Shown here: one piece after another, positions 1 through 34,862 of the stretch
Layout: the number at the start of each line of letters is the position of its first letter
Numbering within the stretch: the first letter of the stretch is position 1
NCBI GenBank assembly: GCA_002448475.1
Contig: DJYI01000049.1
Span: 5,475 to 69,474 of the forward strand
From: Verrucomicrobia bacterium UBA6982
Lineage (GTDB): Bacteria; Verrucomicrobiota; Kiritimatiellia; RFP12; UBA3636
Reading direction: 5' to 3'
Length of the DNA: 64,000 nt
The notes under the pieces: generated by a model
Seen by the model: only the letters and a program-made list of their open reading frames with translations
The model's database searches: none
What the model was told of the DNA's origin: nothing
Position numbers and translations under genes: made by a program

Positions 1-224
1 GCATCCGTTTCGACGACTCCGAAGTCGATTTTTCCAAGGACACCGTCGCCCTGTATCGATATGACGGCTCGATGTGGCGGCGCGTTGGCAAGGCCACAAG
101 CGGCATCCACGTCGAAACCAACGAGCTTCAGCCGCGCTACGATTCCGAGTCCGACAACTGGAACATCGGCTGGCTCGCCGTCGTCCGCAAGCGCATCAAT
201 CCCTTTGTGCTGGTTGTCCGGTAA
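1..224 (+). CDS. 3' end of an upstream gene truncated by the window edge. The encoded C-terminus is ...NWNIGWLAVVRKRINPFVLVVR*.
   Basis: Open frame from the window edge to TAA at about 222-224, with GC3-biased codons. It ends in the same hydrophobic-x4-5 plus Arg C-terminal motif seen on four other secreted proteins in this window. Confidence 0.45.
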   Translation, partial: IRFDDSEVDFSKDTVALYRYDGSMWRRVGKATSGIHVETNELQPRYDSESDNWNIGWLAVVRKRINPFVLVVR

Positions 225-232
225 ATGAAGCG

Positions 233-2659
233 ATGAACATGCCCCGTTTGCATTCCCTTTGCGCCTCTCTCTGCGTCCTTTGCGCCGGTTCCGCCGCCGG
301 CGGCATCAAATGCGTCGCGCACCGCGGCGACTATCCCGACGCGCCGGAACATTCGATGGCCGCTTACCGCAACGCGGTGGAGCGCGGCAGCGAGGTGCTG
401 AAGCTCGACGTTCATCCGTCCAGGGACGGCGTGATCGTCCTTTCCCACGACCCTACCTTCAAGCGCACGATGGGCTGGGACGTCCGGATCCGCGATGTCA
501 CATGGGACGAAATCCGGCGGCACACCTATCTCCTGGGCGGGCAACCCACGCAGGAGCGCGCCATATCGCTCCCGGAGGCGCTTGAAGTCGTGAAGTCGAT
601 CCCGGAGTTTTGGATTGACTTCAAGTCCTTTGATCCGGACTTTGCCGAACGGGTGCTCGCGACCTTCGCGCAGTTTGGAATCGGCCAGGACCGCCTCATG
701 GTGGCGACCTACAATGGCGACGCCCTGCAATACTTTCGCAAGGCACACCCATCGATCCGCCGCATCGTCCACATCGACTTTTGCGAACAGGACGGCAAAT
801 GGTCCCTTTCCTTTGAGAGGCACTTGGGAATCCTGTGCCGAAAAGCCGCCGACGGCGAGCCGTATTCGCCGGAAGTGGCCGAACACATTCTCGAATGCGC
901 CCGGACGCTCGACCTCTGGGGCGTGAATCTAGGCGCCGTGCCGCAGGTCGTCACGCCGGGACTCGTTGCGCGGCTGCACGGCGAAGGGCTGGCCGTCTCG
1001 CTCGCGCTCGTCCACGATGCCGCGACGGCGCGCGTTTTCGCCAATCACGGCGGGGACTTCGTCGTGACGCGCGACCGCCGCGTTGTAGCGCCGATCATAT
1101 GCGCTGGACAAAGAAAGGAACTTTGCTGGCAATGCGGGCCCAACGCCCGCATCGAGGGGAATCTGCTCATTGCCGAAGTTCCGCCAGGCGAGGAGAAGAC
1201 CGGCGGTCTCGCCACGGCCGAGATCGACCTTTCGGCGTGGGATGGCAAGCCCGTCGGGGCGGAGATCGTCGCGAGCGGCGAGCGCATCGCGAAGCCGCTC
1301 CACTGGTACACCGGCCTCAAGTTCCAGTTCGAATACGAGGATTCGCTCTCCGGCGAGTGGAGCTACCCGAACACGCCCGGACGCCTCGGCGACTTCCCGG
1401 AGCAGACGATTCGCGTCTCCGACCTCGCCTCCGGCGTGTCGCGCACGAAGGCGCGCATGATGATCGGCCTCCAGGAGACGAGCGGCCGCGCCGTCTTCGA
1501 CCTCTCCACCCTCCGCATAGGCGACCCCGTGCCTCTCTGGCCCATCACGAACCAGAACCACCGGTGCGCGTACACTGGAAGTCTTAACGCGGAGGCGCAG
1601 AGACGCGGAGAAACGCAGAGTGACAATCTTGCAATCCTGTCTACTCAATCTTCGGGCGAAAACGCCTCTGCGCCTCTGTGTCTCTGCGTTAAAAAATTGC
1701 GCGGCGTCATGTCCCCGTCGCGGAAGGAGCCGCCGTTCATGACGGAGGCCGACTTCGACACGCTTCAGTCGTGGGGCGTCACCCTGATCCGCTACCAGAT
1801 GTCGAGCAACGACGTGCGGCCCGACGGCGAAGACGCCGTCGCGTGGTTCGACCGCTGGCTGGCACCCAAGCTCGACCACTTCGATTCGTTCCTCCTTCCC
1901 GAAGCGGTGAAACGCGGCATGAAGGTCGTCCTCGACCTCCACGAGCCCCCTGGCAGCAGGGACGAGTCAAACGAAATGCGGATGTTCCACGACGAGCGCC
2001 TGGCCACACATTTCGTCGAAACGTGGCGCCGCATCGCCGAGCGCTTCAAGGGGCGCGAGGGAATCTACGGCTACGACCTCGTCAACGAGCCGATGCAGAT
2101 CTCGGAGGCGGCGCCGGACTGCGATTTCTGGACGGTCCAGAAACGCGCCGCCGAGGCCATCCGCGAAATTGACCCGGACATTCCGATCCTCGTGGAATGC
2201 AACTCCCAGGACGACCCGGCGGCGTTTGCGTCCTTCTCGCCGCTGGACCTGACGAACATCATTTACGAAGTCCACATGTACAAGCCGCTCGCCTACACGC
2301 ACCAGGGCGTCATGTGGAAGCAGGGCGAACTGCGCACGTATCCCGACGAATCGAAAGGCTGGAACAAGGACTACCTGCGGGCGTGCCTCAAGCCGGTGCG
2401 CGACTTCCAGCTGCGGCACGGCGCGAAGATCTACGCGGGCGAGTTCAGCGCCGTCGCATGGGCCCCGGGGGCGGACCAATACCTGCGCGACTGCATCGAC
2501 CTCTTCGAGGAATACGGCTGGGACTGGACCTACCACGCCTTCCGCGAATCCGGCGTCTGGAACGTCGAATGGGAGGGACCGGACCGCGACTCCCTCGGCC
2601 CCGCGAAAGGCGACACCCCGCGCAAGAAGGCGCTGCTCGACGGCTTGCGGCGGGAGTGA
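233..2659 (+). CDS. Secreted fusion protein: N-terminal glycerophosphodiester phosphodiesterase (GDPD) domain, a beta-sandwich (CBM-like) middle domain, and a C-terminal GH5 (cellulase-family) glycoside hydrolase.
   Basis: Signal peptide MNMPRLHSLCASLCVLCAGSAAG. GDPD motif HRGDYPD...ENS-type (VAHRGDYPDAPEHSMAAYRNAVERG). GH5 acid/base motif GYDLVNEP and nucleophile motif YAGEFSA. The C-terminal two thirds are paralogous to CDS 8058..9761. The ORF track begins at 74 (GTG), but the signal peptide starts at Met 233/239. Confidence 0.8.
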   Translation: MNMPRLHSLCASLCVLCAGSAAGGIKCVAHRGDYPDAPEHSMAAYRNAVERGSEVLKLDVHPSRDGVIVLSHDPTFKRTMGWDVRIRDVTWDEIRRHTYLLGGQPTQERAISLPEALEVVKSIPEFWIDFKSFDPDFAERVLATFAQFGIGQDRLMVATYNGDALQYFRKAHPSIRRIVHIDFCEQDGKWSLSFERHLGILCRKAADGEPYSPEVAEHILECARTLDLWGVNLGAVPQVVTPGLVARLHGEGLAVSLALVHDAATARVFANHGGDFVVTRDRRVVAPIICAGQRKELCWQCGPNARIEGNLLIAEVPPGEEKTGGLATAEIDLSAWDGKPVGAEIVASGERIAKPLHWYTGLKFQFEYEDSLSGEWSYPNTPGRLGDFPEQTIRVSDLASGVSRTKARMMIGLQETSGRAVFDLSTLRIGDPVPLWPITNQNHRCAYTGSLNAEAQRRGETQSDNLAILSTQSSGENASAPLCLCVKKLRGVMSPSRKEPPFMTEADFDTLQSWGVTLIRYQMSSNDVRPDGEDAVAWFDRWLAPKLDHFDSFLLPEAVKRGMKVVLDLHEPPGSRDESNEMRMFHDERLATHFVETWRRIAERFKGREGIYGYDLVNEPMQISEAAPDCDFWTVQKRAAEAIREIDPDIPILVECNSQDDPAAFASFSPLDLTNIIYEVHMYKPLAYTHQGVMWKQGELRTYPDESKGWNKDYLRACLKPVRDFQLRHGAKIYAGEFSAVAWAPGADQYLRDCIDLFEEYGWDWTYHAFRESGVWNVEWEGPDRDSLGPAKGDTPRKKALLDGLRRE
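1584..1696. repeat. GC-rich palindromic (hairpin) element of about 113 bp inserted in frame in the linker of the GDPD-GH5 gene.
   Basis: Inverted repeats TTAACGCGGAGGCGCAGAGACGCGGAGAAACGCAGAG ... CTCTGCGCCTCTGTGTCTCTGCGTTAAAAAA. It encodes a roughly 40-aa segment (TGSLNAEAQRRGETQSDNLAILSTQSSGENASAPLCLCVK) that is absent from the paralog. Confidence 0.7.
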
Positions 2660-5472: not shown

Positions 5473-5547
5473 GCCACTTCACATTGGCCAAACAATACAG
5501 CGTGCTATTTTTTTCCAACGAATCGAGAGCAATCGGGTATTCTCCAG

Positions 5548-6606
5548 TTGAGGGCGCTGCACGCCCGTCCCCGAATGATCTCGATCGTCGAAGAACTCCG
5601 CACGAACCGCGAAAGCGGCGCAAAACGGCTTGAAGCCGAATACAAGGCCGGTCTCATGACTCTGGCCCGGCGCTTCCACGCCGACGAAGGCGACGCCGAG
5701 GAACTCGTCAACCGCACGCTGGCCGAAGTCATCGCGGGCATCGACGCCTATCTGGAGCAATCCGCCTTTTTCGGCTGGATGTGCAAGATCCTCGAAAACC
5801 AATACTCCAAGGACGTGCGTCGCAAGTCGAACAGGACAATTGTCGAGGCACCCGAAGCATTGGACGCGGCGGACGACGCGGATGCGGCCAACCGGATTTT
5901 CCGCGAAGTCGATGCGGCGATTCTCCGCGACGCCATCGCCACGCTTCCCGACGACATGAAGGACGCGCTCATGCTCCGCTATTTCATGGACATGCCCGTC
6001 GGGCGCGTGGCGAAAATCCTGTCGGTCCCGGAGGGCACCGTGAAGTGGCGCCTGCATTGCGCCCGGCTCACGCTCTCCGCCAAGCTCGGCGCCGCCGCGA
6101 AGAAGCCGGGCGGCAGGTCCGTCCTCCTCGCGCTGGCGCTCTGCGGCTTCGCGGCACTTGGCGCGGCGGTGTGGAACCTCGGGTGGGGCGAGCCGTCCCG
6201 GCGAGCCGACGCCCCCGCCTGGGCCTACGGCGAGGGGACGGGCGGGACCGGCGGGACGGGCGGGACCGGCGGGACGGGCGGGACCGGCCTTCAACCTTTC
6301 AACTTTTCATCCGAACAATCAACTGAACAACCCCAACAGGAAACCTCCTCTATGACCATACGCACACGTTCCGCGGCGCTGGGCGCCGCCTCCGCGCTGG
6401 CGCTTGCCAGTGCGCCTTCCGCCGCCTCCGGCGACGAATACCAGTTCATCGTCTCCGGCGATCCGGCCGCCGCCGCGACGGCGGGCGTCGTCGAGGCGGA
6501 ATCGACGGCCGGCCCGCTGGACGTCCGCCACCATGCCGTCGCCGAATCGCGCGCGATGGCCCTTTCGTCGATCAAAAACGGCAGTTTCGTCATTGTCGTC
6601 AGGTAG
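5548..6606 (+). CDS. ECF-type sigma-70 factor (regions 2 and 4) whose ORF continues, with no stop codon, through a TM segment, a GTGG tandem repeat and an intergenic-type octamer array into a small secreted-protein coding segment.
   Basis: Sigma region 4 helix-turn-helix LMLRYFMDMPVGRVAKILSVPEGTVKWRLHCAR. It is followed by the TM-like segment SVLLALALCGFAALGAAVW, then EGTGGTGGTGGTGGTGGTG, then LQPFNF (from the CTTTCAAC array), then MTIRTRS.... Confidence 0.6.
   Translation: MRALHARPRMISIVEELRTNRESGAKRLEAEYKAGLMTLARRFHADEGDAEELVNRTLAEVIAGIDAYLEQSAFFGWMCKILENQYSKDVRRKSNRTIVEAPEALDAADDADAANRIFREVDAAILRDAIATLPDDMKDALMLRYFMDMPVGRVAKILSVPEGTVKWRLHCARLTLSAKLGAAAKKPGGRSVLLALALCGFAALGAAVWNLGWGEPSRRADAPAWAYGEGTGGTGGTGGTGGTGGTGLQPFNFSSEQSTEQPQQETSSMTIRTRSAALGAASALALASAPSAASGDEYQFIVSGDPAAAATAGVVEAESTAGPLDVRHHAVAESRAMALSSIKNGSFVIVVR
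6232..6290. repeat. Tandem repeat of an 18-bp unit (GGGACGGGCGGGACCGGC), about 3 copies, encoding (GTGG)n.
   Basis: Direct reading of the sequence 6232-6290. Confidence 0.8.
6291..6320. repeat. CTTTCAAC octamer array (CCTTCAACCTTTCAACTTTTCA).
   Basis: The same motif array is found at 9781-9803, 9893-9920 and, reverse-complemented, at 63740-63773. Confidence 0.7.
6352..6606 (+). CDS. Possible separate small secreted protein (85 aa) with a signal peptide and a C-terminal ...NGSFVIVVR.
   Basis: ATG at 6352 is followed by the signal-peptide-like MTIRTRSAALGAASALALASAPSAASG. It is in the same frame as the sigma ORF with no intervening stop. The C-terminal motif is shared with four other secreted proteins. 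Confidence 0.4.
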   Translation: MTIRTRSAALGAASALALASAPSAASGDEYQFIVSGDPAAAATAGVVEAESTAGPLDVRHHAVAESRAMALSSIKNGSFVIVVR

Positions 6607-15085: not shown

Positions 15086-17005
15086 TCACCGGATGACCAT
15101 GGTGAAGGCCAGCCCCCCGGCGCATTCCAGGGCTCCCATGTCCACGCCGCTGTATTTCACGCGCTTGTTGCCGAGGATGTCTGTCTCGTTCTGTTGCCCG
15201 TCGAGCAATAAGCCACTGTCGCGGCAAGGCGAACCCGGCTTGATAGCAAACGCCGACGGGGAAAATCCAACAATTACCGTAGGATGATCAGTAACCGTCA
15301 CGCCCTCGAACTTCGGGTCCTTGTCCTCGCCGCTGATGCAGCCTGTCTGGTTTTCAACCGTCCCGATGCGCCAGAAAGAGTTGACTGCGGAGGGGATGTA
15401 TTCCACGCTCCCGGCAATGCAGTTCGTCATATAGGTGCGGGAAACCTGTGCCGAGCTGTTGTCGTTGCCCCAGACCGTGCAGTTGACGGCAACCGCTTCA
15501 GCTTCCCCGGCATCCGCGCCGATGCCGCTCGCCGCGAGCGGGTTAATCAACTCGTTGCGGTTCCCGTACACAAGCGTTCCGTAGTGGGAACCCTTGCAGA
15601 TCGCGTAATACATTGCCGCACGATTTCCGACGGCGATGCAGTTGCGGGTGTTGGCGTTGTATGTCGCGCCACCCTCGGCGGCGTATGCGTAGTTGTTCGT
15701 CATCACGCAGTTCTCCAGATATCCGCTGAACGCGGCGCCGCCGTATTTGGCGCTGTTCCCGGCGAAAACGCAGTTCGTCGCAAGAGATCCGAATGCGCCG
15801 CCGCCAAAGACACGGTAGTCTTCGCCGCTGGCGGCGTTGTTCAGGATCTCGCATCCCGTCAGGCTGCTGCACGCCGCGCCAGCGCCGCCGTTGTAGCTGG
15901 TGTTGCCCTCGATGACCGAATCGACGACCTCGCAATCCATCACGCCGCCGCCCGCGCCGACGCTATAGTCGTGACCGTAGTTCTCAAACACGAACGCTGT
16001 CGGTCGCGTGGATGCATTGCCCCTGACGTCGCAGTTGGAGACGACACACTGGTAGGCGCCGCCACCCAGCCCGCCTCCTTCGGGGTCGGTGTAGGCGGCC
16101 GTGTTTCCGACGAGTGTGCAATCAAAGAGCTGGCAGTAATCGCGAGTGCCGTAGATTGGCGCCGCGCCCGCCCCGCCGCCGTATGTTGAGCGGTTCCAGC
16201 CAATCAGGCAGTTGTATGCCTTGGTCACGCACACCGGCAGGTCAAGGGTGCCATTCTGCCTGCCGCCGGCGATGCCGCCGCCGCAGAAGCCCGCATAGTT
16301 GTTGGTGACCACGCAATCGTGGAGAACGGCGTGGAAGACTCCGCCGCCCGACCCCTCGACTTTCAAATACCATTCCGGGTCGTCATAGCCCGGAGTCCCC
16401 ATGTTGTGGCGAACCTCGTTGTTGCGAATCACGCAGTCGAGCCACAGGCCGCCGAAGTTCGCCCCCGTGTAGAGCGCCGAGCAATTCTCCACCACGCAGT
16501 TGGAGGCTGTGAACGCAGCTTCGGGATTGCCGATGAAACCGCCATCCATGCAGAAGCCCGCGCCCTGGTAGTCCGTGTAGCCGCCGGAAACAGTCAGGTC
16601 GCGGATGACGTGCCCTCCTACGGATGGTAAGCAGTAAAAGATGCGCATCCCGTCCGTTGCGGGAGACCCGACAAGTCGCACGTCCTCAGGGTTGCCGCTT
16701 TCGCCAACGAACGTCACGCCGCTGACCTGCGGAACGAGGTAGACACCTGAACCATAAGAGGGATAGGGGCTCTTGCTCTTGTCGAGGTTGTATGTTCCGA
16801 CGGCAAGATGGATGGTGTCGCCACTGGCGACCTGGCCGTTGTAGAGGACATTCATGACGTCGCCCCGATCCGAGGGTGATGTGCCGTTGCCGGTGCCGCC
16901 GGGGGCGACATACCAGTCGGAGGCGGTGGCAGTGAGCGTGAACGACGCGGTGGTGACGGCCAGCGACGCGAGCCGCGTCGATAGTGGATGACGATTCGAG
17001 TTCAT
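15086..17005 (-). CDS. Secreted right-handed parallel beta-helix repeat protein (pectate-lyase-superfamily-like), C-terminus ...GGLAFTMVIR*.
   Basis: Signal peptide MNSNRHPLSTRLASLAVTTASFTLTATA. More than 10 repeats of the type C..NN..(x)GGA (NCVFAGNSAKYGGAAF, ENCVMTNNYAYAAEGGATY, and so on). Confidence 0.7.
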   Translation of the reverse strand: MNSNRHPLSTRLASLAVTTASFTLTATASDWYVAPGGTGNGTSPSDRGDVMNVLYNGQVASGDTIHLAVGTYNLDKSKSPYPSYGSGVYLVPQVSGVTFVGESGNPEDVRLVGSPATDGMRIFYCLPSVGGHVIRDLTVSGGYTDYQGAGFCMDGGFIGNPEAAFTASNCVVENCSALYTGANFGGLWLDCVIRNNEVRHNMGTPGYDDPEWYLKVEGSGGGVFHAVLHDCVVTNNYAGFCGGGIAGGRQNGTLDLPVCVTKAYNCLIGWNRSTYGGGAGAAPIYGTRDYCQLFDCTLVGNTAAYTDPEGGGLGGGAYQCVVSNCDVRGNASTRPTAFVFENYGHDYSVGAGGGVMDCEVVDSVIEGNTSYNGGAGAACSSLTGCEILNNAASGEDYRVFGGGAFGSLATNCVFAGNSAKYGGAAFSGYLENCVMTNNYAYAAEGGATYNANTRNCIAVGNRAAMYYAICKGSHYGTLVYGNRNELINPLAASGIGADAGEAEAVAVNCTVWGNDNSSAQVSRTYMTNCIAGSVEYIPSAVNSFWRIGTVENQTGCISGEDKDPKFEGVTVTDHPTVIVGFSPSAFAIKPGSPCRDSGLLLDGQQNETDILGNKRVKYSGVDMGALECAGGLAFTMVIR

Positions 17006-17371: not shown

Positions 17372-18577
17372 CTATGTGTGAGAATTCTCCTTCCTCCACT
17401 CCCGCAGGGACTTTCCCATGCGAGCGCGGAAGACGCGCCGGAGTTCCACGCCGGAGCCGAAGCCGCAGAAGTCGGCGATGGCCCCGATGGCCGTGTCGGT
17501 GCCGGAGAGAAGCGCGAAGACCTTCTCCAGGCGGACGTACTGGATTTCGTCGAGGACGGAATGCCCCGTCGCCTCGCGGAAGCGCAGGTTGAAGAGTCGG
17601 CGCGAGCAGCGGAAGCGCCTGGCAAGCGTCATGGCCGTGAGGCCGTCGCACGCCTCGCGCCGGATCATCTCGACCGCCTCCAGGACGAACTTCTCGCGCC
17701 GCCCCGCGCCGCCGGTGGAGCGTCGACGCACGGCGAGGAGCGGGGCGATGAAAAAGGTTTTTGGATCACACGGAGCCACAGAGACACGGAGATTTGCATT
17801 TCGGCTCCGTGTCTCCGTGTCTCTGTGTGAGGTCTTGTTCCCGATCATCCTCGCCGCGACATATCCGGCGCGCTCATGGTCGAGCTGGATGCTTGAAATG
17901 GCCGGTTCGGACGTCTCGCAGACCGTGAGGTCGTTGTCGACACCAAGCAGCGTCAGTTCACGCGGGATGTCGCGCCGGGAAGCCTTCGCGGCGGCCACGA
18001 CTTCGGTGGCAATGCGGTCGTTGACGGCGAAGATGGCGGTCTTTTGCGGCAGTTCCTCCACGAATCGGGCAAGACGTTCCATCCTCTTGATCTCCGGCTC
18101 TTCGCGGAACGGGAACGTGTGGCACGACATTCCGGCTTCCCCGCAAAGTGCGGAGAAGGCGTCGATCCGCTTTCCAGCCCATTCGACATCCCAGCAAGCG
18201 CCGACCACCGCATACGCGGCGGGGCGCCCGGCGGAGAGTTCTTGGAAGGCAGCGCGCGCGACGGCCTCGTTGTCGGCCGAGACGCGGACGATCCGGCCTC
18301 CGTAGAGCGACGGTGCGGCGTGGAGATAGACGACCGGAACGCGCCCGAACAGGCGCGGCGGGAGATGCGAGTTGCCGTCCGAGCACTCGACCACGCAGCC
18401 CGCGACGGGGCGGTGCGCCCCGAGCAGCGGGGCGATGTCCTCCGGGCGCGATTCCTGCCACGGCACGGATCGAACCTCCCATCCCAGCGCTCCGGCGTAG
18501 CGCCGGATGCCGGCGAGCGTTATCGCCTGGATGCGGTCGCCTTTGGCGGTGTTGAGGTATAGGATGGTCGAAGGCAT
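17372..18577 (-). CDS. XylR-like transcriptional regulator: periplasmic-binding-protein-fold sugar-sensing N-domain plus C-terminal AraC-family helix-turn-helix.
   Basis: C-terminal AraC signature ...LTAMTLARRFRCSRRLFNLRFREATGHSVLDEIQYVRLEKV...FCGFGS..LRRVFRARMGKS. Paralog of 27021..28220. The start was trimmed to MPSTILYLN (18577). Confidence 0.75.
   Translation of the reverse strand: MPSTILYLNTAKGDRIQAITLAGIRRYAGALGWEVRSVPWQESRPEDIAPLLGAHRPVAGCVVECSDGNSHLPPRLFGRVPVVYLHAAPSLYGGRIVRVSADNEAVARAAFQELSAGRPAAYAVVGACWDVEWAGKRIDAFSALCGEAGMSCHTFPFREEPEIKRMERLARFVEELPQKTAIFAVNDRIATEVVAAAKASRRDIPRELTLLGVDNDLTVCETSEPAISSIQLDHERAGYVAARMIGNKTSHRDTETRSRNANLRVSVAPCDPKTFFIAPLLAVRRRSTGGAGRREKFVLEAVEMIRREACDGLTAMTLARRFRCSRRLFNLRFREATGHSVLDEIQYVRLEKVFALLSGTDTAIGAIADFCGFGSGVELRRVFRARMGKSLREWRKENSHT
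17766..17830. repeat. 65-bp perfect-stem palindromic element inserted in frame in the XylR-like gene (interdomain region).
   Basis: CACACGGAGCCACAGAGACACGGAG atttgcattt CGGCTCCGTGTCTCCGTGTCTCTGTGTG. It shares the CAGAGAC(G/A)CGGAG motif with the element at 1584..1696. It encodes ...SHRDTETRSRNANLRVSVAP.... Confidence 0.7.
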
Positions 18578-23344: not shown

Positions 23345-23371
23345 CTGGACCCGATTCTAGCGCACGACCAT

Positions 23372-26008
23372 CTAGCGCACAACCATCACAAACGGGGGCG
23401 AGACGAGTTCATCGGTTTCCGGGCCCACGGCGCTGAATGCCGCATAGCCGCCGGAAGCCGATTTCGGGAGATGCGCCTTTTTGTCAATGGAGTCCCAAAG
23501 CGCAACGAGGCCGTTCTTGAGGCGGACTGGCTGGAAACGGCGGACAGGCTCGCCGTCCTGCCTGAGTTTGAGCCAATAGAGACGCGATTTTGCGAACGAT
23601 GCGGCCGTGCCGTTCTGGTTGTTTGCGAAGAGGTATAGATTCTTTCCGGTGTTGATGTCGTCGGCAAGCGACCGGGATGAAACGACCGTCGAGGTCTTCG
23701 CCTCGTCGTCGATGATCGTGATGACTTGCGATCCTGCCGAAAACGAAACGCGCGCGTGGTTGGTCGCGTTGCAATACAGGCGATAGACGTCCGCGTAGCC
23801 CGCGCCCCACTGCGATGCGGGCGTGGCGGGATCGCTCAGGCTGGGACGCCAATACGAGTCGGCGTAGCCGAAGGCGAGCGTGTCCAGGGCACCGTGATAC
23901 CACATGTAGAACCGGGAATTGGCGTCGCTGCCGAGCGATCCGAGGAAGCACTCCTCGCCGCCGCCGTTCGGGCGCAGGTTCGTCTCGATGAATTCGGCGG
24001 TCGTCCCAGCCTTGCCAATGACGCCCGTATCGACATACTGCGTCCCGTCAGTTTCGACATATTCGAGAAAGGCATCGACGGAAGAGCGGGCCGATTCTTC
24101 CGTCACCTCTCCCGTGTTGCCTTCGGCGGGAATGGCGGGAATCGGGTAGAAAATGCGCTGCGAGACGGTATCGTAGAGCGCGGCCTGGCCGTCCTTCACG
24201 CACGGCTTGAAATCGCGCACCGGCGTCTCGCCGCCTTGGTAGATCGCGAGCCCGTAGCAACGCGCGGCGGAACGGTAGATCGGCTTGCCGTTCTTCGTGT
24301 CGTTGCAGGCGAAGAGGTAGAGGTTGCCTTTGCCGGAGGCTTCGCCGGACCAGGTCTGGGGTGTCGTCGTGGGCGAACCGCCCTCCGGCGTCAGCGTGAC
24401 GGACTGCGCCCCTGCGGCGAACGACACGTCGAAGGAGTATTTCGTTCCAGCTTCATACGCAGAGCCGAAGGACTTGGTGTTGTTGCCATATCCGATCCAC
24501 GGCTTCTGCGCGGTCTGGTCGATCATGTAAAAGCGGTTGGCGTCAGAACCGCTGTTGTAGCATCCGCAGGCGAGATAGGAATGGTGGTTTTCGTCGAGAT
24601 ACTGGTTCTCTTCGTCCGACGTGCGCATCTGCGTCCACGCCATCTCGCCCGTCGCGCGCGTCGGAGAGCTGGCGTCCACCTGCGTGTCGAGGTGCGTGAA
24701 GCCGTCGGACTCGATGTAATCCACGAACACGACATCGTCCGGGGAGGCCGCGACCGAGTTGTCGAACTTGAGCGGATCGCCTTCCGGATAGAAGATGGTC
24801 TTCGAGACGTCGTCGTAGAGCGCTGCCTGGCCGTATTTGAGGCACGGGCGGAAGTCGCGGACCATCACGCCGTCCTGGAAGAGCTTGAGCCAATAAACGC
24901 GCGCCTTGCCCCAATACTGCTTGGCGAGCGCACTGCCGCTCTGGTTGCAGCAGAAGAGATACAGGCTGCGACCGGTGTCGATGGAGGTCGTGCCAGTTCC
25001 CGCGTAGCTTCCCACGACGCTTCCCTCGGGACCTCCTTCGCGAACCGTGATCGCCTGGTTTCCGACGGCGAACGACGCATCGACATGGTATCGCTCGCCG
25101 GGCGTGAAGGTGCCGAACGTTCCATACGAGCCATAGCCCCAGAGCCATTTGTCGCCCGTGTTGCGGTGGACGAGGTAGAAGCGCTTGTTCGTTCCGTCGC
25201 GTGAATCCAGCAGCGCCTGGTCGGAGCTCGTTCCGATCCAGGCCATTTCCATCTGCGCGGCGGTCCCGGAGCGACCGGTCACCTTTGTGTCGATGTAGGA
25301 ATTGCCCTCAGACTCCACGTAGTCGATGAAGGCGTCGGGGACGTCGCAATTGGTGTCGTAGGTCAGGTCCGTGCCGGAAGCGGAGTAGTAGATTTTGTCG
25401 TTCTGGGAGTCGTAGAGACCGGCGCGACCGCCGTGGACGCAGGGGCGGAAGTCGCGGACGAGCGCTCCGTCCTGCCAGATCTTGAGACCATAGCAGCGCG
25501 TCTTGGAGAAGCCCGCCGCCGTTCCGTTCTGGTTGTTGGCGAAGACGTAGAGGTTCAGCCCGGTATCGAGCGCGGTGTAGTCCTTTGAAAACACCTTCGT
25601 GCCGTCGATGATGACCGTATTCGTCGAATAGTTGTTCGCGTCTGCGGCGGAGAAGTCCGTCGCGTAGGTGTAAACGCGCTTTTTCTCAAACAGCAGATCC
25701 TGCCCGTTGTTGACCTTGTCGCCCTTTCCTTGCGCCGTGAACATGTTGCCGGACGTCGAACTGCACCAGCAGGCGTAGAAGCGGGTGTCGCTCGACCAGT
25801 ATCCGGAGGCGAGGAATGCGGAGTCGGCGAGGTTCATCCACTCGACCTTGCATTCGGCCTTGGTTCCGTGGCGTCCGACGACGCCGGTGTCGATCCATTG
25901 CGAACCGGTCGATTCGACGTAGCGGACGAACTTGTCCGGCGTTCCCGCCGAAGTTGTCAAAATCGCGGCGGAAGCCACGAAGACGGACAAGAGAAGATTG
26001 CGATTCAT
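23372..26008 (-). CDS. Large secreted protein built from about 5 tandem ~150-aa beta-sandwich (ConA/LamG-like?) repeats, C-terminus ...PPFVMVVR*.
   Basis: Signal peptide MNRNLLLSVFVASAAILTTSAG. Repeat hallmark (F)IDYVES.G..YIDTGV.G.....(A)LYD.....IFYP occurs five times. Confidence 0.6.
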   Translation of the reverse strand: MNRNLLLSVFVASAAILTTSAGTPDKFVRYVESTGSQWIDTGVVGRHGTKAECKVEWMNLADSAFLASGYWSSDTRFYACWCSSTSGNMFTAQGKGDKVNNGQDLLFEKKRVYTYATDFSAADANNYSTNTVIIDGTKVFSKDYTALDTGLNLYVFANNQNGTAAGFSKTRCYGLKIWQDGALVRDFRPCVHGGRAGLYDSQNDKIYYSASGTDLTYDTNCDVPDAFIDYVESEGNSYIDTKVTGRSGTAAQMEMAWIGTSSDQALLDSRDGTNKRFYLVHRNTGDKWLWGYGSYGTFGTFTPGERYHVDASFAVGNQAITVREGGPEGSVVGSYAGTGTTSIDTGRSLYLFCCNQSGSALAKQYWGKARVYWLKLFQDGVMVRDFRPCLKYGQAALYDDVSKTIFYPEGDPLKFDNSVAASPDDVVFVDYIESDGFTHLDTQVDASSPTRATGEMAWTQMRTSDEENQYLDENHHSYLACGCYNSGSDANRFYMIDQTAQKPWIGYGNNTKSFGSAYEAGTKYSFDVSFAAGAQSVTLTPEGGSPTTTPQTWSGEASGKGNLYLFACNDTKNGKPIYRSAARCYGLAIYQGGETPVRDFKPCVKDGQAALYDTVSQRIFYPIPAIPAEGNTGEVTEESARSSVDAFLEYVETDGTQYVDTGVIGKAGTTAEFIETNLRPNGGGEECFLGSLGSDANSRFYMWYHGALDTLAFGYADSYWRPSLSDPATPASQWGAGYADVYRLYCNATNHARVSFSAGSQVITIIDDEAKTSTVVSSRSLADDINTGKNLYLFANNQNGTAASFAKSRLYWLKLRQDGEPVRRFQPVRLKNGLVALWDSIDKKAHLPKSASGGYAAFSAVGPETDELVSPPFVMVVR

Positions 26009-26243: not shown

Positions 26244-26498
26244 ATGATACGCACGCAAATCCAACTCCCAGACGCCCTCTACGCCCATACCCGGCGCTTC
26301 GCCGCAATCCGCGAAATCAGCATGGCGGAACTTTGCCGCAACTCGCTGGAACTCTTTCTGGCGATCCATCCCCTCGCCGAAGACGGGCCGCCGAGTCGGC
26401 GCTGGGAGCCACCGGTCTGCCGATCCACGGGACTCAAGGCCGATCCGTTCTCCGCCGAGGACTGGCGCGAGCGCATCTATGCCGCCGACCAGGAATGA
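26244..26498 (+). CDS. vapB: Antitoxin of a type II TA pair (ribbon-helix-helix/VapB-like), 84 aa.
   Basis: Small ORF immediately upstream of and adjacent to the PIN gene. N-terminal MIRTQIQLPDALYA has beta-strand-then-helix character. Confidence 0.55.
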   Translation: MIRTQIQLPDALYAHTRRFAAIREISMAELCRNSLELFLAIHPLAEDGPPSRRWEPPVCRSTGLKADPFSAEDWRERIYAADQE

Positions 26499-26511
26499 GG
26501 GGGCGTTCGCC

Positions 26512-26949
26512 ATGGTCTCCTGCGACACCAACATTCTGTTCGCCGCATCCAACCCGGACGATCCGAACCACGCCGCCGCCGCCGCGTTCGTTTCCAAGCA
26601 TGCCGAAGACCAGCGTTTCGTGATTGCCGAGCAGGTGCTGGTCGAATTGTACTGCCTGCTTCGGAACCCAGTCGTGCAGACTCGGCCGCTCACTGCGCCC
26701 GAGGCCGTGTCCGTCGTCTCCGCGTATCGAAGCAACCCCGCATGGGCGGTCGTGGACATCCCCTCCGGCCCGGACGCGATGAACGCCGTCTGGAGCCGGG
26801 CCGCCGCTCCCGGTTTCGCCCGCCGCCGAATACACGACATGCGTCTGGCCGAGACGCTTCGGCACTGGGGGGTGGACGAATTCCACACCCGGAACGTCCG
26901 CGATTTCGTAGACGCCGGCTTTCGCGTCCTCTCGAATCCTCTGGACTGA
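26512..26949 (+). CDS. vapC: PIN-domain toxin (VapC family).
   Basis: MVSCDTNILF (first acidic D), IAEQVLVEL, and RRIHDMRLAETLRHWGVDEFHTRNVRDF. An AGGGGG RBS lies 8 nt upstream of ATG 26512. Confidence 0.75.
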   Translation: MVSCDTNILFAASNPDDPNHAAAAAFVSKHAEDQRFVIAEQVLVELYCLLRNPVVQTRPLTAPEAVSVVSAYRSNPAWAVVDIPSGPDAMNAVWSRAAAPGFARRRIHDMRLAETLRHWGVDEFHTRNVRDFVDAGFRVLSNPLD

Positions 26950-27020: not shown

Positions 27021-28220
27021 CTATCCGAGATGGTTCTTGCGCCACTGGCGCATCGACATGCCCGTGCGAGCCCGAAAGGCGATGCGCAGCTCGACCTGCG
27101 AGCCGAAGCCGCAGAAGTCGGCGATGGCACCGATGGGCGGCTGAGGTCTGGCAAGCAGGTCCTTCACCGCCTGGAGGCGCACATGCATGATCTCGTCCAT
27201 CACCGAGTGGCCCATTGCCTCGCGGAACCGGCGTTCGAAATGCTTGCGGGAGCCGGGAATCCGCGCGGCGAGACCTGCCGCCGTGATCCCTCCGCAGGCC
27301 TCCTTCCGGATGATCTCGACGGCCTTGAGGACATGCGGGTCGCGGCGACCGCGGCCAAGCGTGGACTCGCGCCGCAGGATGCACAGCGGACCGAAGCGCG
27401 CCGAGAGGTCGTCCGTCGCGGCATCCTTGCAACCGCCAGAAGCCCCCGCGTCCACGAGTCGGGCCAGGAGGCGGGCTGCCAAATAGCCCGCAAGCTCGAA
27501 GTCAAGCTGTGCGGACGACACGCCCGCGATGGCCGTTTCGCCGTCGGAGTCGCCCCATCCGTCGACGCCGACAAGCGTCAGATCGCGCGGAAGGGAGCGC
27601 CCGGCGGCGCGGGCGGCGAAGGCGACGTCCTGCGCCGAGAAGTCGTTCGCGGCGAAGACGGCGCAGCCTCTTGGCAGGGTCGCGACCCATTCCGCGAGAC
27701 GGCGGCGGCGGCGCACCAGGTCGTCGGTGACGTGGCCCGGCCTCACGCGGATCGCGGTAAAAAGGTGGCACGCGGCGCCAGCGCCGTCGCAGAGTTCCCG
27801 AAACGCATCGATGCGCTCCGCGCTCCACAGCTGCATTCCGTGGCTCGGGACCGCGGCATAGCATGGCGGAAGCCCCGCCGCGAGTTCGCGGAAAGCGGTC
27901 TTCGCGACGGCGGCGTTGTCGCACGCGACACATGCCGCGCCGCCCAGGGAACGCGGCTCGGGCGGATCCAGCCACACGGCGGGGACGCAGCCGAAAAGGG
28001 CCGGTCTGGGAAATCGCCGCACAGAGGAGCTCTCCACGATGCAGCCGACGGGACGGCGGTCCTTCAGAAGCCTGCGAACGTTTTCCGGCCGCGACTCCGA
28101 GGATTTCAGCGCCGCGACTTCCCAGCCGCGCATCCTCGCAAAGCGGAGGATGCCGGCCAGCTTGCGCCGCCGCGTGTTGTTCTCCCCGCTGCCGTTCAGA
28201 AACAGGACCGTTCCAGCCAT
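27021..28220 (-). CDS. XylR-like regulator (PBP-fold sensor plus AraC helix-turn-helix), paralog of 17372..18577.
   Basis: C-terminal ...ITAAGLAARIPGSRKHFERRFREAMGHSVMDEIMHVRLQAVKDLL...FCGFGSQVELRIAFRARTGMS. Confidence 0.75.
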   Translation of the reverse strand: MAGTVLFLNGSGENNTRRRKLAGILRFARMRGWEVAALKSSESRPENVRRLLKDRRPVGCIVESSSVRRFPRPALFGCVPAVWLDPPEPRSLGGAACVACDNAAVAKTAFRELAAGLPPCYAAVPSHGMQLWSAERIDAFRELCDGAGAACHLFTAIRVRPGHVTDDLVRRRRRLAEWVATLPRGCAVFAANDFSAQDVAFAARAAGRSLPRDLTLVGVDGWGDSDGETAIAGVSSAQLDFELAGYLAARLLARLVDAGASGGCKDAATDDLSARFGPLCILRRESTLGRGRRDPHVLKAVEIIRKEACGGITAAGLAARIPGSRKHFERRFREAMGHSVMDEIMHVRLQAVKDLLARPQPPIGAIADFCGFGSQVELRIAFRARTGMSMRQWRKNHLG

Positions 28221-31449: not shown

Positions 31450-31507
31450 GGGAGGGGAGAGGTAAGAGGTGAGAGGTGAGAGGGAAGAGGTGAGAGGGAA
31501 GCCGCCT

Positions 31508-33661
31508 CTACCGGAACACGATCACTGTGGAGGAGTCCGGCTTGACAACCCAGAGCTCGGTGTTGTTGACGCGCTTTTCCAGGCGAATCCTGCTGGACGT
31601 GGCGGTGAAGGTCGCGGCAATCGGCGAATCCGAACGGAGAATGCAGGCGGAAGTACCGTCGCGGAGTTCCCCGGAGACGACCACGCCCGCGGAGCCCGTC
31701 ACCTCGCCGTTCACTGTGAGGCACGGCACGGCGCCGTCGGTAACCGCCACCGCCAGCGATGAGCCTTCCGCGAAGGTGATGTTGCCGGTGATCAAGCCGG
31801 CGCCGCCCAGCGCCGCCCCGGCGGCGACGGATGGCGATGTGCCGGTGACATCGCCATCAAGCAGAAGAGTCCCTTTCTCGACGGCAAGGGTGCCGTTGAG
31901 CGTGATCGAGCCACCGATGCGCTGCGTTCCTTCGCCGATCTTCCGAAATGCCAGCGTGCCGCCGGTGCGGTTGATGTTACCTTCGAAATCGGCGTCGGAA
32001 TCGTTGTCGCCGACGACGATGGAAGAGTTAAAGCTGTTGTTGAGGGTGATCGTTCCGCGGCCGCGGAGTCCGTTCATCGTGAACGCCGGGGCATTGCCGA
32101 TACGGAGGTTTCCGTCCACGACGGTGTCGCCCGTGCGATTGCCGGAAGGCAGGAACGAGTCGCTCTGGAGCCAGACGTTCCCGACAATGGTCACATCACC
32201 GGTGAAGGTTCCCGTCGAATAGACCGAGAGGCTGCCTTGGCCGGGGTAGGTGGCCGGGACCTGCGGAGTACCCAACGGAATGGATCCGAACGTGATGCCG
32301 GACGATCCGGCAACCGATCCGTGCAGTTCGGAATACTTTCCCGGGCGATTCGTGAAGTAGCCCCGGCGCCCGCCGAAGTCGAGGTTCGCGCGAAGACAGA
32401 CGCGCTGGTTGCTGTCGAGCATGACCGCTCCGGACGTGACGACGAGCGTTCCGTTCGTGGCGACGACTTCCTGCGCGACGGTCGCGTAGCCGGTCGCGAG
32501 GCTGTTCACGACCGTCCGCTGCCCGGTGAACTCGACTTTCGAGACCCCGGACGCGATGTAGACGTTTTCGCCTTCGGTTTCGAGTTCGCCCTCGAACGCT
32601 TCGGAAATGGTTCGGCGCTCCGTGTCGGCCGACAGCGCGCGGAAGCCGTTTGCCGCATCGTAGACGGCAAACCCGGTTTCGGCGATGCGGGCCCACGGGA
32701 CGATCGCGCAGGAGGTCGTGCCGGCGCTGCCGCCGACCGTTTCGACGCCATCTTCGACGAGCAGCCGAACCGCGTTGGCCGCTTCGGCGCTGCCCAGAAG
32801 GGTGTAGTTGTTGGCCGAGATGTCCAGAAGCGTGTCGTGCACCCTGTCGAAAGTTCCGACGCGAACGGTCAACGGCTTGCTCGAACTCCGGAACGAAAAC
32901 ACCGGATACCCTCCTTGGTAGTCGCCCGGAGCGGTTTTCGGCGACGATGCGAGCTGGACCGTGCCGAAGGAATCCTCCGCGCCGCTGCCGTTTTTCCGGG
33001 CGTAGAACTGGACGGTTCCCGCCTCCAGCCGGAGCGTGGACGCGATGCGGCGCCCGGCGTCCGAACCGCTTTCTTCGCCGATGCGGAGAATCGGCATGGC
33101 CGTGTTGCCGGCGGACTTGCGCAGCGTGATCGTCCCCGTTCCGGCGAGGGCTGACGCGCCATAAAAACCGAAGGGATTGGCCGTTCCCTCCAGCATGAGG
33201 TCTCCGTTGGAGAGGGTGTTGTAGAAGGACACGGGAAAGGTCGAGGAGAGTGTGCGCGTCCCGCCGCCCAGATCGATGTCCAGGTGCTGCCCGGCAGTCG
33301 CCGAGCCGAACACCAGGTTTCCTTTGGTCGCCGGCGGAGCCCAGGCCATGTCGGATGCGAACGTGGCCGTACGGTCCGTTCCGTAGCCGCGAAGGATGAA
33401 CGTCACCTCTCCGGGATGAGCGAACGAAAGTCCGTTCTCGCCAAAGGTCCAGTCTCGATCAAAGGTTAGGTTCAACGTGACCTTGGACGTCAGATTGTCT
33501 CCAAAGAGGCCGGAGACGATGCCGTCCTGCCAGTTTTCGATATCGGTGAAGGAGTAGGTTCCCGCTGTCGTCTGAAGCCAGCCGGTGTCGGCGTGTACGG
33601 GGCAGAGTCCTGCCGACAGAAGGGCGAGCGAGGTGAGGGTGAGGAGGGCGTGTGGTTTCAT
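31508..33661 (-). CDS. Secreted beta-helical protein with autotransporter-associated beta-strand-type repeats, C-terminus ...DSSTVIVFR*.
   Basis: Signal peptide MKPHALLTLTSLALLSAGLCPVHA. Repeats such as GGTLAFRKIGEGTQRIGGSITLNGTLAVEKGTLLLDGDVTG. No PEP-CTERM tail. Confidence 0.65.
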   Translation of the reverse strand: MKPHALLTLTSLALLSAGLCPVHADTGWLQTTAGTYSFTDIENWQDGIVSGLFGDNLTSKVTLNLTFDRDWTFGENGLSFAHPGEVTFILRGYGTDRTATFASDMAWAPPATKGNLVFGSATAGQHLDIDLGGGTRTLSSTFPVSFYNTLSNGDLMLEGTANPFGFYGASALAGTGTITLRKSAGNTAMPILRIGEESGSDAGRRIASTLRLEAGTVQFYARKNGSGAEDSFGTVQLASSPKTAPGDYQGGYPVFSFRSSSKPLTVRVGTFDRVHDTLLDISANNYTLLGSAEAANAVRLLVEDGVETVGGSAGTTSCAIVPWARIAETGFAVYDAANGFRALSADTERRTISEAFEGELETEGENVYIASGVSKVEFTGQRTVVNSLATGYATVAQEVVATNGTLVVTSGAVMLDSNQRVCLRANLDFGGRRGYFTNRPGKYSELHGSVAGSSGITFGSIPLGTPQVPATYPGQGSLSVYSTGTFTGDVTIVGNVWLQSDSFLPSGNRTGDTVVDGNLRIGNAPAFTMNGLRGRGTITLNNSFNSSIVVGDNDSDADFEGNINRTGGTLAFRKIGEGTQRIGGSITLNGTLAVEKGTLLLDGDVTGTSPSVAAGAALGGAGLITGNITFAEGSSLAVAVTDGAVPCLTVNGEVTGSAGVVVSGELRDGTSACILRSDSPIAATFTATSSRIRLEKRVNNTELWVVKPDSSTVIVFR

Positions 33662-33716
33662 GGTGTTTGCGTGTTTGTTTTGGTGAATGTCGGTTGCTGT
33701 CGATTGCGATGGATGG

Positions 33717-34862
33717 CTACCGATCGCAATGGAGTTCGCGTGAAAAAACGGCAAGGGCGGCCGGGCGGCGGCGCCGCGGGGACGCGATGGAGGCGCGCTC
33801 GACGAGCGCGACGGGGACGGCGATGTGCAGGTCGTCTCCGTCCGGGTGGTCGGAGGTCTTCCCCGTCGCCTTCCCGAGTTCGGCGGCGAGGGCGGCGAGG
33901 GCGCGGCGGCCCATTTCGGAAAAGTCCTGCCGGACGGTCGTGAGGGCCGGCGAGGACCATTCGGCGATGGGGTCGTCGTCGAAGCCCGTGACGCTCACGT
34001 CGCGCGGGACGGCGAGCCCGGCGTCGGAGAAGGCGCGGATCGCGTGGAGCGCCACGGCGTCGCAACTGCACGCGAGCGCCGTCGGGCGCGGACGCATGCG
34101 GAGCATCTCCGCGATGCGCTCGCGGATGACCGGCTCCCAGTTGGCGAAGCGCTGGCCGGGGATGTTGAAGACAACGGGCGGCGGCACGAGCGCGGCGGCG
34201 CAGGCGTCGGCCACGCCCTGCGCGCGCTCCGCCGTCGTGTCCGCCGCGAGGTCCCCCAGGAACGCGAGGCGGCGGTGCCCGGCGGCGAGCAGCGCCTCGG
34301 CCGCGAGCCGCCCGCCCGCGCGGTTGTCCGACGAAACGGACGCGCCCGGCAGGTCGGCGAGAGTCTGATCTACGACTACGAACGGGAATTCTGCCTCTGC
34401 CAGCGCCTTGAGCGCGCTGTCGAACGCGGAATCGTGCTGGGACATGACAATCGCACCTGCGGCACCGGAGGTTGGCAACTCAAGAATCGCCGTGACGACG
34501 ACGTCCAGGTCGCCGCGACCGTCGAAGACCGAAACATCCAAACCTTCCGCAGCCGCGCCTTCCTGCACCGCGTGCGCCACGCGCACTGCTGGCGCCCAGA
34601 GCAGGTTGCCGGCAATGAAGCGCACCGTGCGCGCCGTCCCCCTTTCGTCGCGGACGAACACGCCGCGCCCGGCACGACGTTCGACGAGACCTTCGTTCAG
34701 GAGTGACTGCACCGCCCGACGGGCTGTCATGCGCGAGACGCCGTTCTCCTCCGCGAACTTCACCTCGGTGCCAAGCCATGAGCCAGGCGGCAGGTGCTGT
34801 TCCTCTATGAGCCCGCGGAGTCGGGCGGCCAGTCTGGCGTATGGTGGAAGATGCTTTCTCAT
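33717..34862 (-). CDS. AraR-like regulator: N-terminal GntR-family winged helix-turn-helix plus C-terminal LacI/PBP-type sugar-binding domain.
   Basis: N-terminal ...KFAEENGVSRMTARRAVQSLLNEGLVERRAGRGVFV (GntR helix-turn-helix). C-terminal PBP type-1 fold blocks. Divergent from the GRE operon. Confidence 0.7.
   Translation of the reverse strand: MRKHLPPYARLAARLRGLIEEQHLPPGSWLGTEVKFAEENGVSRMTARRAVQSLLNEGLVERRAGRGVFVRDERGTARTVRFIAGNLLWAPAVRVAHAVQEGAAAEGLDVSVFDGRGDLDVVVTAILELPTSGAAGAIVMSQHDSAFDSALKALAEAEFPFVVVDQTLADLPGASVSSDNRAGGRLAAEALLAAGHRRLAFLGDLAADTTAERAQGVADACAAALVPPPVVFNIPGQRFANWEPVIRERIAEMLRMRPRPTALACSCDAVALHAIRAFSDAGLAVPRDVSVTGFDDDPIAEWSSPALTTVRQDFSEMGRRALAALAAELGKATGKTSDHPDGDDLHIAVPVALVERASIASPRRRRPAALAVFSRELHCDR

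Follow-up and report, generated by a model that had tools for sequence, protein, structure and literature searches.

Bacteria are known to mark certain envelope proteins at the C-terminus, and three such marks, LPXTG, PEP-CTERM and the C-terminal domain of type IX secretion (T9SS), have each brought a dedicated envelope machine to light; signals of this kind also serve to predict surface proteomes. Sigma factors coupled to sensors form a second body of precedent. In Clostridium, RsgI anti-sigma factors carry polysaccharide-sensing modules. Among extracytoplasmic function (ECF) sigma factors, SCO4117 of the ECF52 type has a Pro-rich spacer and a carbohydrate-binding domain (PMC8999054). As general ideas, C-terminal sorting tags and sigma factors fused to membrane sensors are both already established.

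Here we describe a seven-residue C-terminal tail, and the genes that carry it, in a 64,000-nucleotide stretch of Verrucomicrobia bacterium UBA6982 (Verrucomicrobiota, Kiritimatiellia; positions 5,475 to 69,474 of contig DJYI01000049.1, assembly GCA_002448475.1), which we call the window and which has a G+C content of 65%. Five of its exported proteins, A to E, end in the tail. One of them, B, is also the C-terminal end of a longer protein in which an ECF sigma factor is joined to the exported part through a predicted transmembrane (TM) helix and a linker, and this arrangement recurs in a large family of related genes.

In standing at the extreme C-terminus of surface-type proteins that have signal peptides, in being restricted to a lineage and in occurring on many unrelated architectures, the tail resembles PEP-CTERM, PGF-CTERM, GlyGly-CTERM and LPXTG. 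It differs from signals of the PEP-CTERM type in that it has seven residues where those have 25-35, lacks a TM helix and an invariant cleavage motif, and contains one basic residue. The sigma-fused carriers resemble IutY (ECF243), SCO4117 and RsgI in combining a sigma domain, a TM segment, a low-complexity spacer and an extracytoplasmic glycan-binding or enzyme-like module, and they head polysaccharide-degradation operons. Unlike IutY and the ECF52 proteins, they show no detected zinc-finger or FecR-like anti-sigma domain, have an ectodomain that appears to be separately translatable and share the tail; they come from a PVC-group diderm.

A conserved tail at the C-termini of exported proteins

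The five tails were listed in an initial annotation of the window made from the DNA letters alone, and each is found in the sequence exactly as given there. A ends in ...NPFVLVVR (PFVLVVR at 201-221, stop codon at 222-224, plus strand) and B in ...GSFVIVVR (SFVIVVR at 6583-6603, stop codon at 6604-6606, plus strand); on the minus strand, C ends in ...AFTMVIR (AFTMVIR at 15089-15109), D in ...PPFVMVVR (PFVMVVR at 23375-23395) and E in ...STVIVFR (STVIVFR at 31511-31531). That all five are exported, as had also been claimed, is borne out by signal peptides in C, D, E and the full-length gene of A and by an internal signal peptide in B, and every full-length carrier that we checked has either a signal peptide or a sigma-TM anchor.

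The codon for the terminal arginine varies from A to E (CGG, AGG, CGG, CGC and CGG, respectively), the DNA 3' of the stop codons shows no relation between the five genes, and the same tail peptide is written with different codons in different genes. The motif therefore belongs to the protein, at whose level it is selected, and is not a DNA repeat, and an origin in a repeat or a terminator is ruled out. The possibility that translation continues past the stop into a concealed anchor was likewise rejected, the in-frame sequence beyond the stops being short and unrelated among the genes.

In the window, the pattern [FILVMT]2[FILVM]3R occurs internally once in a total of 20,145 residues of called proteins and at the end of four of the 48 complete C-termini as well as of the partial gene A (binomial p ~1e-8 to 1e-11). 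When about 0.9 Mb of related contigs was added to the window, a strict 7-mer pattern gave 18 internal and 65 terminal matches in 292,636 residues from 674 open reading frames (ORFs), where 0.04 terminal matches would be expected by chance. With a terminal enrichment of more than 1000-fold, chance is excluded as the source of the motif. A general compositional effect had been discounted in the initial annotation on the ground that other secreted proteins of the window lack the motif, and its GH5, GH78, GH130, GH42-like and FGE-like proteins are indeed without the tail.

Three smaller observations concern the DNA around the tails. In D, a 15-bp tandem duplication at 23356-23387 doubles the last four codons and the stop (...MVVR* MVVR*). 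Between E and the GH130 gene, directly 3' of the stop codon of E, the DNA at 31452-31501 contains GA/CT-rich repeats (7, 14 and 21 bp). The stop codon itself is TAG in 66 of 93 tail-ending genes, as against 134 of 376 other ORFs of at least 150 amino acids (aa) in the same loci (Fisher p 1e-9); the sequence 3' of TAG is not conserved in the tail genes, and shared ancestry or selection could explain the bias.

The tail as an independent unit

A set of 200 non-redundant tails, drawn from orthologues and paralogues as well as from related contigs, gives a unit that is seven residues long and reads [G/A/P/S]-[F/T/L/M]-four hydrophobic residues-[R/K]-COOH. Position -7 is G in 50%, A in 25%, P in 12% and S in 6% of the tails, and position -6 is F in 39%, T in 31%, L in 10% and M in 8%; positions -5 to -2 are V, I, L, M or F, with T common at -5, and the last residue is R in 79%, K in 11%, H in 4% and Q in 4%. 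The preference at -7 (93% G, A, P or S; 2.3 bits) is clear even though that position lay outside the pattern with which the tails were collected. From -8 upstream each position holds less than 1 bit, so that across unrelated proteins the conservation is confined to -7 to -1.

Among orthologues the tail is retained while its sequence drifts. Nearly all of the ~78 orthologues of C (35-80% identity) keep one, in forms such as FTMVIR, TYFLFR, NTIFIR and LIILLR, and so do 22 of 22 orthologues of E, with variants including FCIIIR, LAVFIR and MLIVVK. The last residue in both sets is mostly R, occasionally K, H, Q or Y, and the residues just before the tail vary.

No Pfam or NCBIfam model matches the tail, in searches with full proteins or, at E<=10, with isolated tails. 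An AlphaFold2 model of C gives a confident right-handed beta-helix (mean pLDDT 91.6) whose final six residues are unpacked, with pLDDT below 50; the corresponding model of B (31 homologues) resolves the sigma domain and is uninformative on the ectodomain (pLDDT ~30). C has a near-threshold match to the choice-of-anchor Q model (NF041518) at aa 587-629, with a score of 24.5 bits where the cut-off is 25 (E=2.4e-5), and the match stops 11 residues before the stop codon. The want of a model match, the unpacked end and the restriction of conservation to the heptapeptide together indicate that the tail is an independent terminal tag. This much of the initial annotation, which had proposed a free-standing C-terminal sorting or processing signal, holds: the terminal segments match no known domain, their conservation is limited to -7 to -1 and the tail of C is unpacked. 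The sorting function, for its part, is inferred.

In P0143, a homologue of E with 31% identity, the place of the tail is taken by a canonical PEP-CTERM signal, VIPEP...ILRRRR. Judged from this end and from the choice-of-anchor Q match of C, the tail occupies the slot in which other lineages put anchors or sorting signals. Distant homologues of C from Limisphaerales and other groups end otherwise, for example in ...FYRVGVQ. Among these beta-helix proteins (P0079-P0120, from Limisphaerales and other Verrucomicrobiota) an end of the form ...(F/Y)(F/Y)R(V/L)xV(x)(x)* is recurrent, and it is perhaps the last strand of another C-terminal module.

The carriers in our data come from gut and rumen Kiritimatiellae and from a few metagenome-assembled genomes (MAGs) labelled Lentisphaerales; the close relatives of the window are rumen and gut MAGs that carry the NCBI label Kiritimatiellae bacterium. 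One MAG labelled Lentisphaerales has the tails GTVLFMR and GTMLTLR (L016 460-3819), and one of these ends a 97-aa fragment that resembles a truncated beta-helix C-terminal end.

A family of nested sigma-factor fusions

The strongest association of the tail, which the initial annotation missed, is with membrane-tethered ECF sigma factors. B had been taken for a small secreted protein encoded at 6352-6606. The reading frame, however, runs on without a stop codon from the start of a sigma-factor gene at 5575 into this small protein, which makes B at the same time the last part of a sigma-TM-linker protein of 343 aa (5575..6606, plus strand), called as one gene in the public assembly. Its ECF sigma domain (~5575-6099, plus strand) is recognised by Pfam and NCBIfam, with 67 bits for TIGR02937 (cut-off 42.9) and with PF04542, PF04545 and PF08281 all above their cut-offs. 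A predicted TM helix follows (~6118-6171, plus strand; a hydrophobic 18-mer at aa 182-199, with KKPGG before it) and then a low-complexity linker that runs to 6351 on the same strand. Within the linker, a perfect 18-bp repeat in three copies at 6235-6288 (GGGACGGGCGGGACCGGC) encodes a GTGGTGG... stretch, and the linkers of the family are generally repetitive and of variable length. An internal Met and a signal peptide (6352-6432, plus strand) lead into an ectodomain of ~50 aa and the tail, so that a short ORF (6352..6606, plus strand) with its own signal peptide, small ectodomain and tail is nested in frame within the long one, a weak Shine-Dalgarno-like CAGGAA lying upstream of it.

An exhaustive phmmer search with B returned 131 representative clusters at E<1e-30 with a common architecture. 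The ECF sigma domain, KKPGGK and a TM helix come first, and then a low-complexity linker whose length ranges from 14 to 111 aa (median 72); an internal Met with signal peptide leads from there into an ectodomain that varies between 50 and ~1600 aa, and the tail closes the protein. The predicted sigma-TM-ectodomain layout is kept in more than 100 representatives. Of the 115 that are at least 330 aa long, 78 end in the tail and some 10 more in a tail-like sequence with another last residue (~88 together); many of those that remain look truncated. In 80 metagenome contigs that were retrieved with nothing but the sigma domain, 58 sigma ORFs run through to a stop codon, and 53 of these carry the tail at the end.

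An internal Met followed by a signal peptide is present in 65 of 67 sigma ORFs, and in 54 of these 65 a GGAG, GAGG or AGGA lies 4-17 nt upstream of the internal ATG, compared with 10% at random in-frame positions. An internal ATG with both a Shine-Dalgarno-like sequence and a signal peptide marks these as nested in-frame genes, for which two products are possible, a long form that is tethered and a short form that is secreted free; each sigma-fused gene can, on this prediction, give both. In B and nine long relatives, Pfam and NCBIfam show only sigma domains, and no anti-sigma domain of the zinc-finger or FecR-like kind.

The fused ectodomains are LamG/ConA-like, DUF2341, BspA-type leucine-rich repeat (LRR), PATR repeat, Gly_rich_2 or beta-helix modules. 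Sigma-fused homologues exist for A, B, C and D, and none for E was found in the set searched; those of C are P0016, P0017, P0028, P0029, P0034 and L013 9116-11743. The fused genes stand first in their operons and are followed by genes for GH5, for a 750-aa glycoside-hydrolase-like protein, for an alpha/alpha-barrel-like protein or for an FGE-like family. An FGE-sulfatase-like protein of ~440-456 aa lies immediately 3' of small, B-like sigma-fused genes in eight loci, examples being 6639-8009 in the window and L069 2549-3871; the GldK/PvdO matches of this protein are far below cut-off.

A promoter-like motif, CCAACG-N16-GGGTATTCT, is found at 5515..5543 (plus strand), 32 nt upstream of the start codon of B. 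Motifs of the type xxAAC-N15-19-GGTAT recur upstream of sigma-fused genes, the strict pattern being present at 20 of 83 sigma genes and at 9 of 367 others. A form xxAAC-N15-19-G(G/C)TAT.AT, often with a run of T before it, may represent an autoregulated ECF-type promoter. The same form is also seen upstream of the non-fused C (~17090-17125) and D (26084-26115).

Carriers and their genomic setting

Only the 3' end of A (1..224, plus strand) lies in the window. The full gene, taken from the source contig (the 69.5-kb metagenome contig NODE_400 of ERZ12302817, which matches the window), encodes 613 aa (L100 2809-4650) with a signal peptide and autotransporter-like beta-strand repeats; its C-terminus is 43% identical over 70 aa to that of the sigma-fused protein P0175, and a divergent AraC-type regulator stands in front of it. 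C (15086..17005, minus strand; 639 aa) has a signal peptide, the beta-helix, the near-threshold choice-of-anchor Q region and the tail, with a fold that resembles polysaccharide lyases and glycosidases. Directly upstream of C is a gene for an AraC-type regulator with a periplasmic-binding-protein-like domain (17372..18577, minus strand), and this is the regulator slot that a fused sigma factor takes in some C orthologues. D (23372..26008, minus strand; 878 aa) consists of a signal peptide, four repeats of ~200 aa that match no family and the tail, and an AraC-type regulator (27021..28220, minus strand) lies upstream. E (31508..33661, minus strand; 717 aa) is an autotransporter-associated beta-strand repeat protein with signal peptide and tail, and has a GntR/LacI-type regulator (33717..34862, minus strand) directly upstream.

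The non-fused A, C, D and E thus sit first in their operons, behind AraC- or LacI-type regulators. The domain types of the carriers in general, LamG, PATR, LRR_5, DUF2341, Gly_rich_2 and beta-helix, are typical of surface proteins, and the glycoside hydrolases in the same polysaccharide-utilisation operons are without the tag. By our estimate 4-8% of ORFs in the sampled loci are tagged, in a sample that is biased to polysaccharide loci. As far as the predictions go, the tag joins straight on to Sec-exported proteins of adhesin-like or glycan-binding type, no linker or domain being conserved between the two.

Some neighbours deserve mention in their own right. Two conserved proteins of 449 and 593 aa (11929-15071) follow C in all relatives and have no Pfam or NCBIfam match; by eye the former is alpha/alpha-barrel-like, and it is fused to a beta-helix in P0012, and the latter is like a TIM-barrel glycosidase. 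A VapC-type PIN toxin gene with a small upstream partner gene (26244-26949) lies between D and its AraC regulator. Further along, at 35217-38318, are a glycyl-radical enzyme of the PFL-like type and its activase, the best matches of the latter being to the activases of sulfopropanediol and hydroxyproline dehydratases.

Comparison with described C-terminal signals

The initial annotation had stated that none of the five proteins carries a PEP-CTERM, an LPXTG or a T9SS-type domain, and we agree, having found neither a motif in the five tails nor a model match. The PEP motif is absent from all five, and no TIGR02595- or PF07589-type match was obtained with the proteins or with isolated tails. A scan of the ORFs of the tail clade for a TM stretch with a basic end found none, the hydrophobic run of the tail being four to five residues with a single R or K, and the LPXTG pentapeptide with TM segment and basic tail is missing from the five proteins, which match no such model. 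There is likewise no match to a T9SS C-terminal domain of the TIGR04183 type, and in C the beta-helix and choice-of-anchor region reach the tail. A candidate for PEP-CTERM at 60231-62816 (...IRGIRRRRS*) proved to be a GldF/GldG-like ABC permease. This transporter, together with the FGE-like neighbours, might hint at T9SS; the GldK/GldJ matches reach 60 bits against a cut-off of 350 and so indicate generic similarity of the FGE fold.

T9SS also offers a comparison. The last strand of T9SS C-terminal domains ends in hydrophobic residues and Lys or Arg, and the system is not known in this phylum. Both signals are found on surface proteins, namely adhesins and proteins that degrade polysaccharides, and not on periplasmic enzymes; the T9SS signal, however, is a folded domain of 70-100 aa with upstream motifs, where the tail has seven residues. 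In being short, portable and dependent on a free C-terminus the tail resembles the eukaryotic signals PTS1 (SKL) and KDEL, the ssrA ligands of Tsp and the YxF end of outer-membrane proteins (OMPs) read by the PDZ domain of DegS, from all of which it differs in being a beta-branched hydrophobic run with a terminal Arg. The bacterial signals that are read from the end, ssrA/Tsp and YxF, serve quality control or stress, whereas the tail marks a functional class of exported proteins.

Among further candidates, the OMP beta-signal, raised in the initial annotation as an outer-membrane beta-strand mechanism, fails. A beta-signal has alternating hydrophobic residues and a terminal aromatic one, as the final strand of a barrel. 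In the tail the hydrophobic residues stand side by side and R or K comes last, and the proteins that bear it are not barrels; the one TonB-dependent receptor found in the lineage has the ordinary end ...LGLRATF, from which the beta-signal reading is rejected. A type I secretion signal, which would stand uncleaved on proteins without an N-terminal signal peptide, is ruled out, all carriers having an N-terminal signal peptide or a sigma-TM anchor. A likeness of tails that begin GFT... to the prepilin site G|FTLIE is superficial, half of the tails reading G-T-...; moreover, prepilin peptidase works on the cytoplasmic side and requires a following TM helix.

Discussion

The literature that we searched on sorting signals of Kiritimatiellae and on ECF sigma factors contains no description of the tail or of the nested sigma fusion, and this phylum goes unmentioned in the ECF reclassification paper. 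The initial annotation knew of no described sorting signal this short, which agrees with our searches, in which no matching model or paper was found. This class of signal and the nested gene architecture thus appear not to have been described before, and what follows on their function is interpretation.

The tail is probably a recognition handle for a cell-envelope machine. It may be pictured as a free beta-strand with a turn-former at one end and an Arg-COOH cap at the other, which one shared envelope component would read end-on, probably by beta-strand addition, and by which that reader would place or hold tagged proteins at the outer membrane or the cell surface. In the long form of the sigma-fused proteins the tag would fix the far end of a tether spanning the periplasm, the linker and the signal-peptide-like segment (~80-130 residues) being, if extended, probably enough to cross it, and in this way the state of the surface protein would be linked to the freeing of the sigma factor by proteolysis. 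That a free strand serves as handle for a shared reader in surface sorting or anchoring, and is reused as the distal end of the sigma tether, is the explanation we favour, and we put its chances just short of even.

Several points weigh against it. No protease, sortase-like or secretion gene recurs beside the tail genes, where glycoside hydrolases, FGE-like proteins and AraC-type regulators are met repeatedly, and no reader was found. The sample is biased to polysaccharide loci and sigma genes and consists entirely of MAGs and metagenome contigs, and genes and signal peptides were called with simple home-made heuristic scripts. The long form is predicted to be tethered at the inner membrane, from which a route to the cell surface is not evident. 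Finally, the tail is nearly universal on the sigma-fused proteins, and its primary role could therefore lie in signalling or proteolysis instead of sorting.

The last point leads directly to the most serious alternative, that the tail serves a C-terminal protease of the PDZ type (Prc/Tsp, Ctp or DegS) as ligand or degron and governs proteolysis of the tethered sigma factor. PDZ domains bind their ligands as a hydrophobic strand at the C-terminus. The tail, a hydrophobic strand confined to the extreme C-terminus, has this character, and it ends nearly all of the sigma-TM fusions, which need proteolysis to free the sigma factor. There is also a precedent in the sigma/anti-sigma hybrid IutY, which is released by Prc and RseP and in the same way as which the fused sigma factors of the ECF52 type are thought to be activated (PMC8999054). 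On such an account the terminal Arg might act as a cap, the removal of which would expose an ideal hydrophobic PDZ ligand, and the free tail proteins would be competitors, co-substrates or evolutionary leftovers. Yet 73 of the ~78 C orthologues and all E orthologues are non-fused and keep the tail, and a general degron leaves unexplained why the tag is found on the adhesin- or lectin-like class and not on the adjoining glycoside hydrolases. In 90% of tails, too, the chain ends on a basic residue, which is unusual for such a ligand, a charged end being poorly suited to the known PDZ domains of Tsp and DegS; nor was an S41 or PDZ gene seen among the neighbours of the tail genes. We therefore regard this alternative as unlikely, although it is the one that we take most seriously. 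Signalling or energised handling in place of sorting would also follow if the tail were a docking strand in the manner of a TonB box, for TonB or for the periplasmic face of an outer-membrane transporter. The consensus G-T-V-I-I-V-R does resemble TonB boxes, both being short strands rich in T, V and I, and the only TonB-dependent receptor found (L097 7590-9764, ending ...LGLRATF*), which adjoins a sigma-fused gene on its upstream side, has the box DLGTVVVEGS, so that GTVVVEG can be set beside the tail consensus GTVIIVR. The long form also has a TonB-like topology, its TM helix lying at the N-terminus, then a long spacer of low complexity and, at the far end, the part that would interact; the binding and protection of anti-sigma factors by TonB-dependent transducers has also been reported (PMC11637429). 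The receptor, however, is a single example and not a recurrent neighbour of sigma-fused genes, and the resemblance is no more than any beta-branched hydrophobic strand would give. Known TonB boxes, moreover, are internal and N-proximal and need no free carboxylate, whereas the tail is C-terminal with a terminal basic residue. We consider such docking distinctly improbable.

Two further explanations would make the tail either a substrate of a known enzyme or no signal at all. The initial annotation had suggested a possible relation to the exosortase operon of the window, and the tail could be imagined as a miniature signal of the PEP-CTERM or PGF-CTERM type processed by that enzyme. The exosortase gene, of the EpsH family (41114..42061, plus strand), is followed by a gene for an EpsI/DUF3485 protein, the pair (41114-42945) lying on the same contig as the tail genes; a gene for a V-ATPase subunit-K-like protein sits next to the pair (40205-42945 in all), and no PEP-CTERM substrate was seen in the window. 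The order of the tail is tripartite-like, with a small residue or Pro/Gly, a hydrophobic run and a basic end, and some tails read P-G-F-hydrophobic-...-R. No canonical PEP-CTERM C-terminus was found among the ~690 ORFs of the tail-clade loci, and the E homologue described above has a PEP-CTERM in the equivalent position. Against this, some 15-20 hydrophobic residues are needed to span the membrane and reach the exosortase active site, and the run of five in the tail is too short; an invariant cleavage motif is missing, no match is obtained with the PEP-CTERM models, and the exosortase gene, generic XrtA-like and below subtype cut-offs, adjoins no tail gene. We found no link between the two; the tail has neither a PEP motif nor a membrane-spanning stretch, and we give processing by this exosortase very little credence. 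The other explanation is that the tail is purely structural, such as the final strand of a hairpin, a cap or a self-assembling strand prone to aggregation, is read by nothing and has spread with one expanding paralogous superfamily. A strand and short loop often precede it, as in ...AVYLQHLGATVISLR and ...VVIIRWSIPPPGTIIIVR, and the low-confidence model of B puts it at the end of a small beta-meander, as the final strand. Sigma-fused homologues exist for four of the five window proteins, and shared ancestry thus explains part of its recurrence. The tail nevertheless occurs on unrelated folds, including beta-helix, LamG, LRR, PATR repeats and a 50-aa mini-domain, and is unpacked in the sole confident model, that of C, while its strict terminal position, conserved basic end and small residue at -7 look like those of a recognition motif. 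A purely structural role seems to us the least probable of all.

If a free strand handle with a shared reader is indeed what the tail provides, a broader picture can be drawn, of an envelope system of gut Kiritimatiellae, hitherto undescribed, in which the heptapeptide sorts or anchors a class of surface glycan-binding proteins and moors a trans-envelope sensor made of one polypeptide, with nested genes producing both. In this full form the proposal is speculative and, in our estimation, somewhat unlikely to hold in every part. Were it true, the tail would be the first sorting or anchoring signal of such brevity in bacteria, and each polysaccharide operon would be controlled by a sensor made from its own first product.

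The organisms concerned are abundant, uncultured bacteria of the gut and rumen that degrade fibre and mucin. The tag is easy to recognise and so offers a direct handle for listing their surface proteins, finding the reader and studying how they sense their substrates: the likely surface glycan-binding proteins of gut and rumen Kiritimatiellae can be listed from it, and a putative reader can be sought by phylogenetic profiling. If the tag is portable, it could also serve for surface display. For the regulation of polysaccharide use, the in-frame joining of a sigma factor to a secreted protein with an internal start of its own would represent a new wiring of polysaccharide sensing to transcription.

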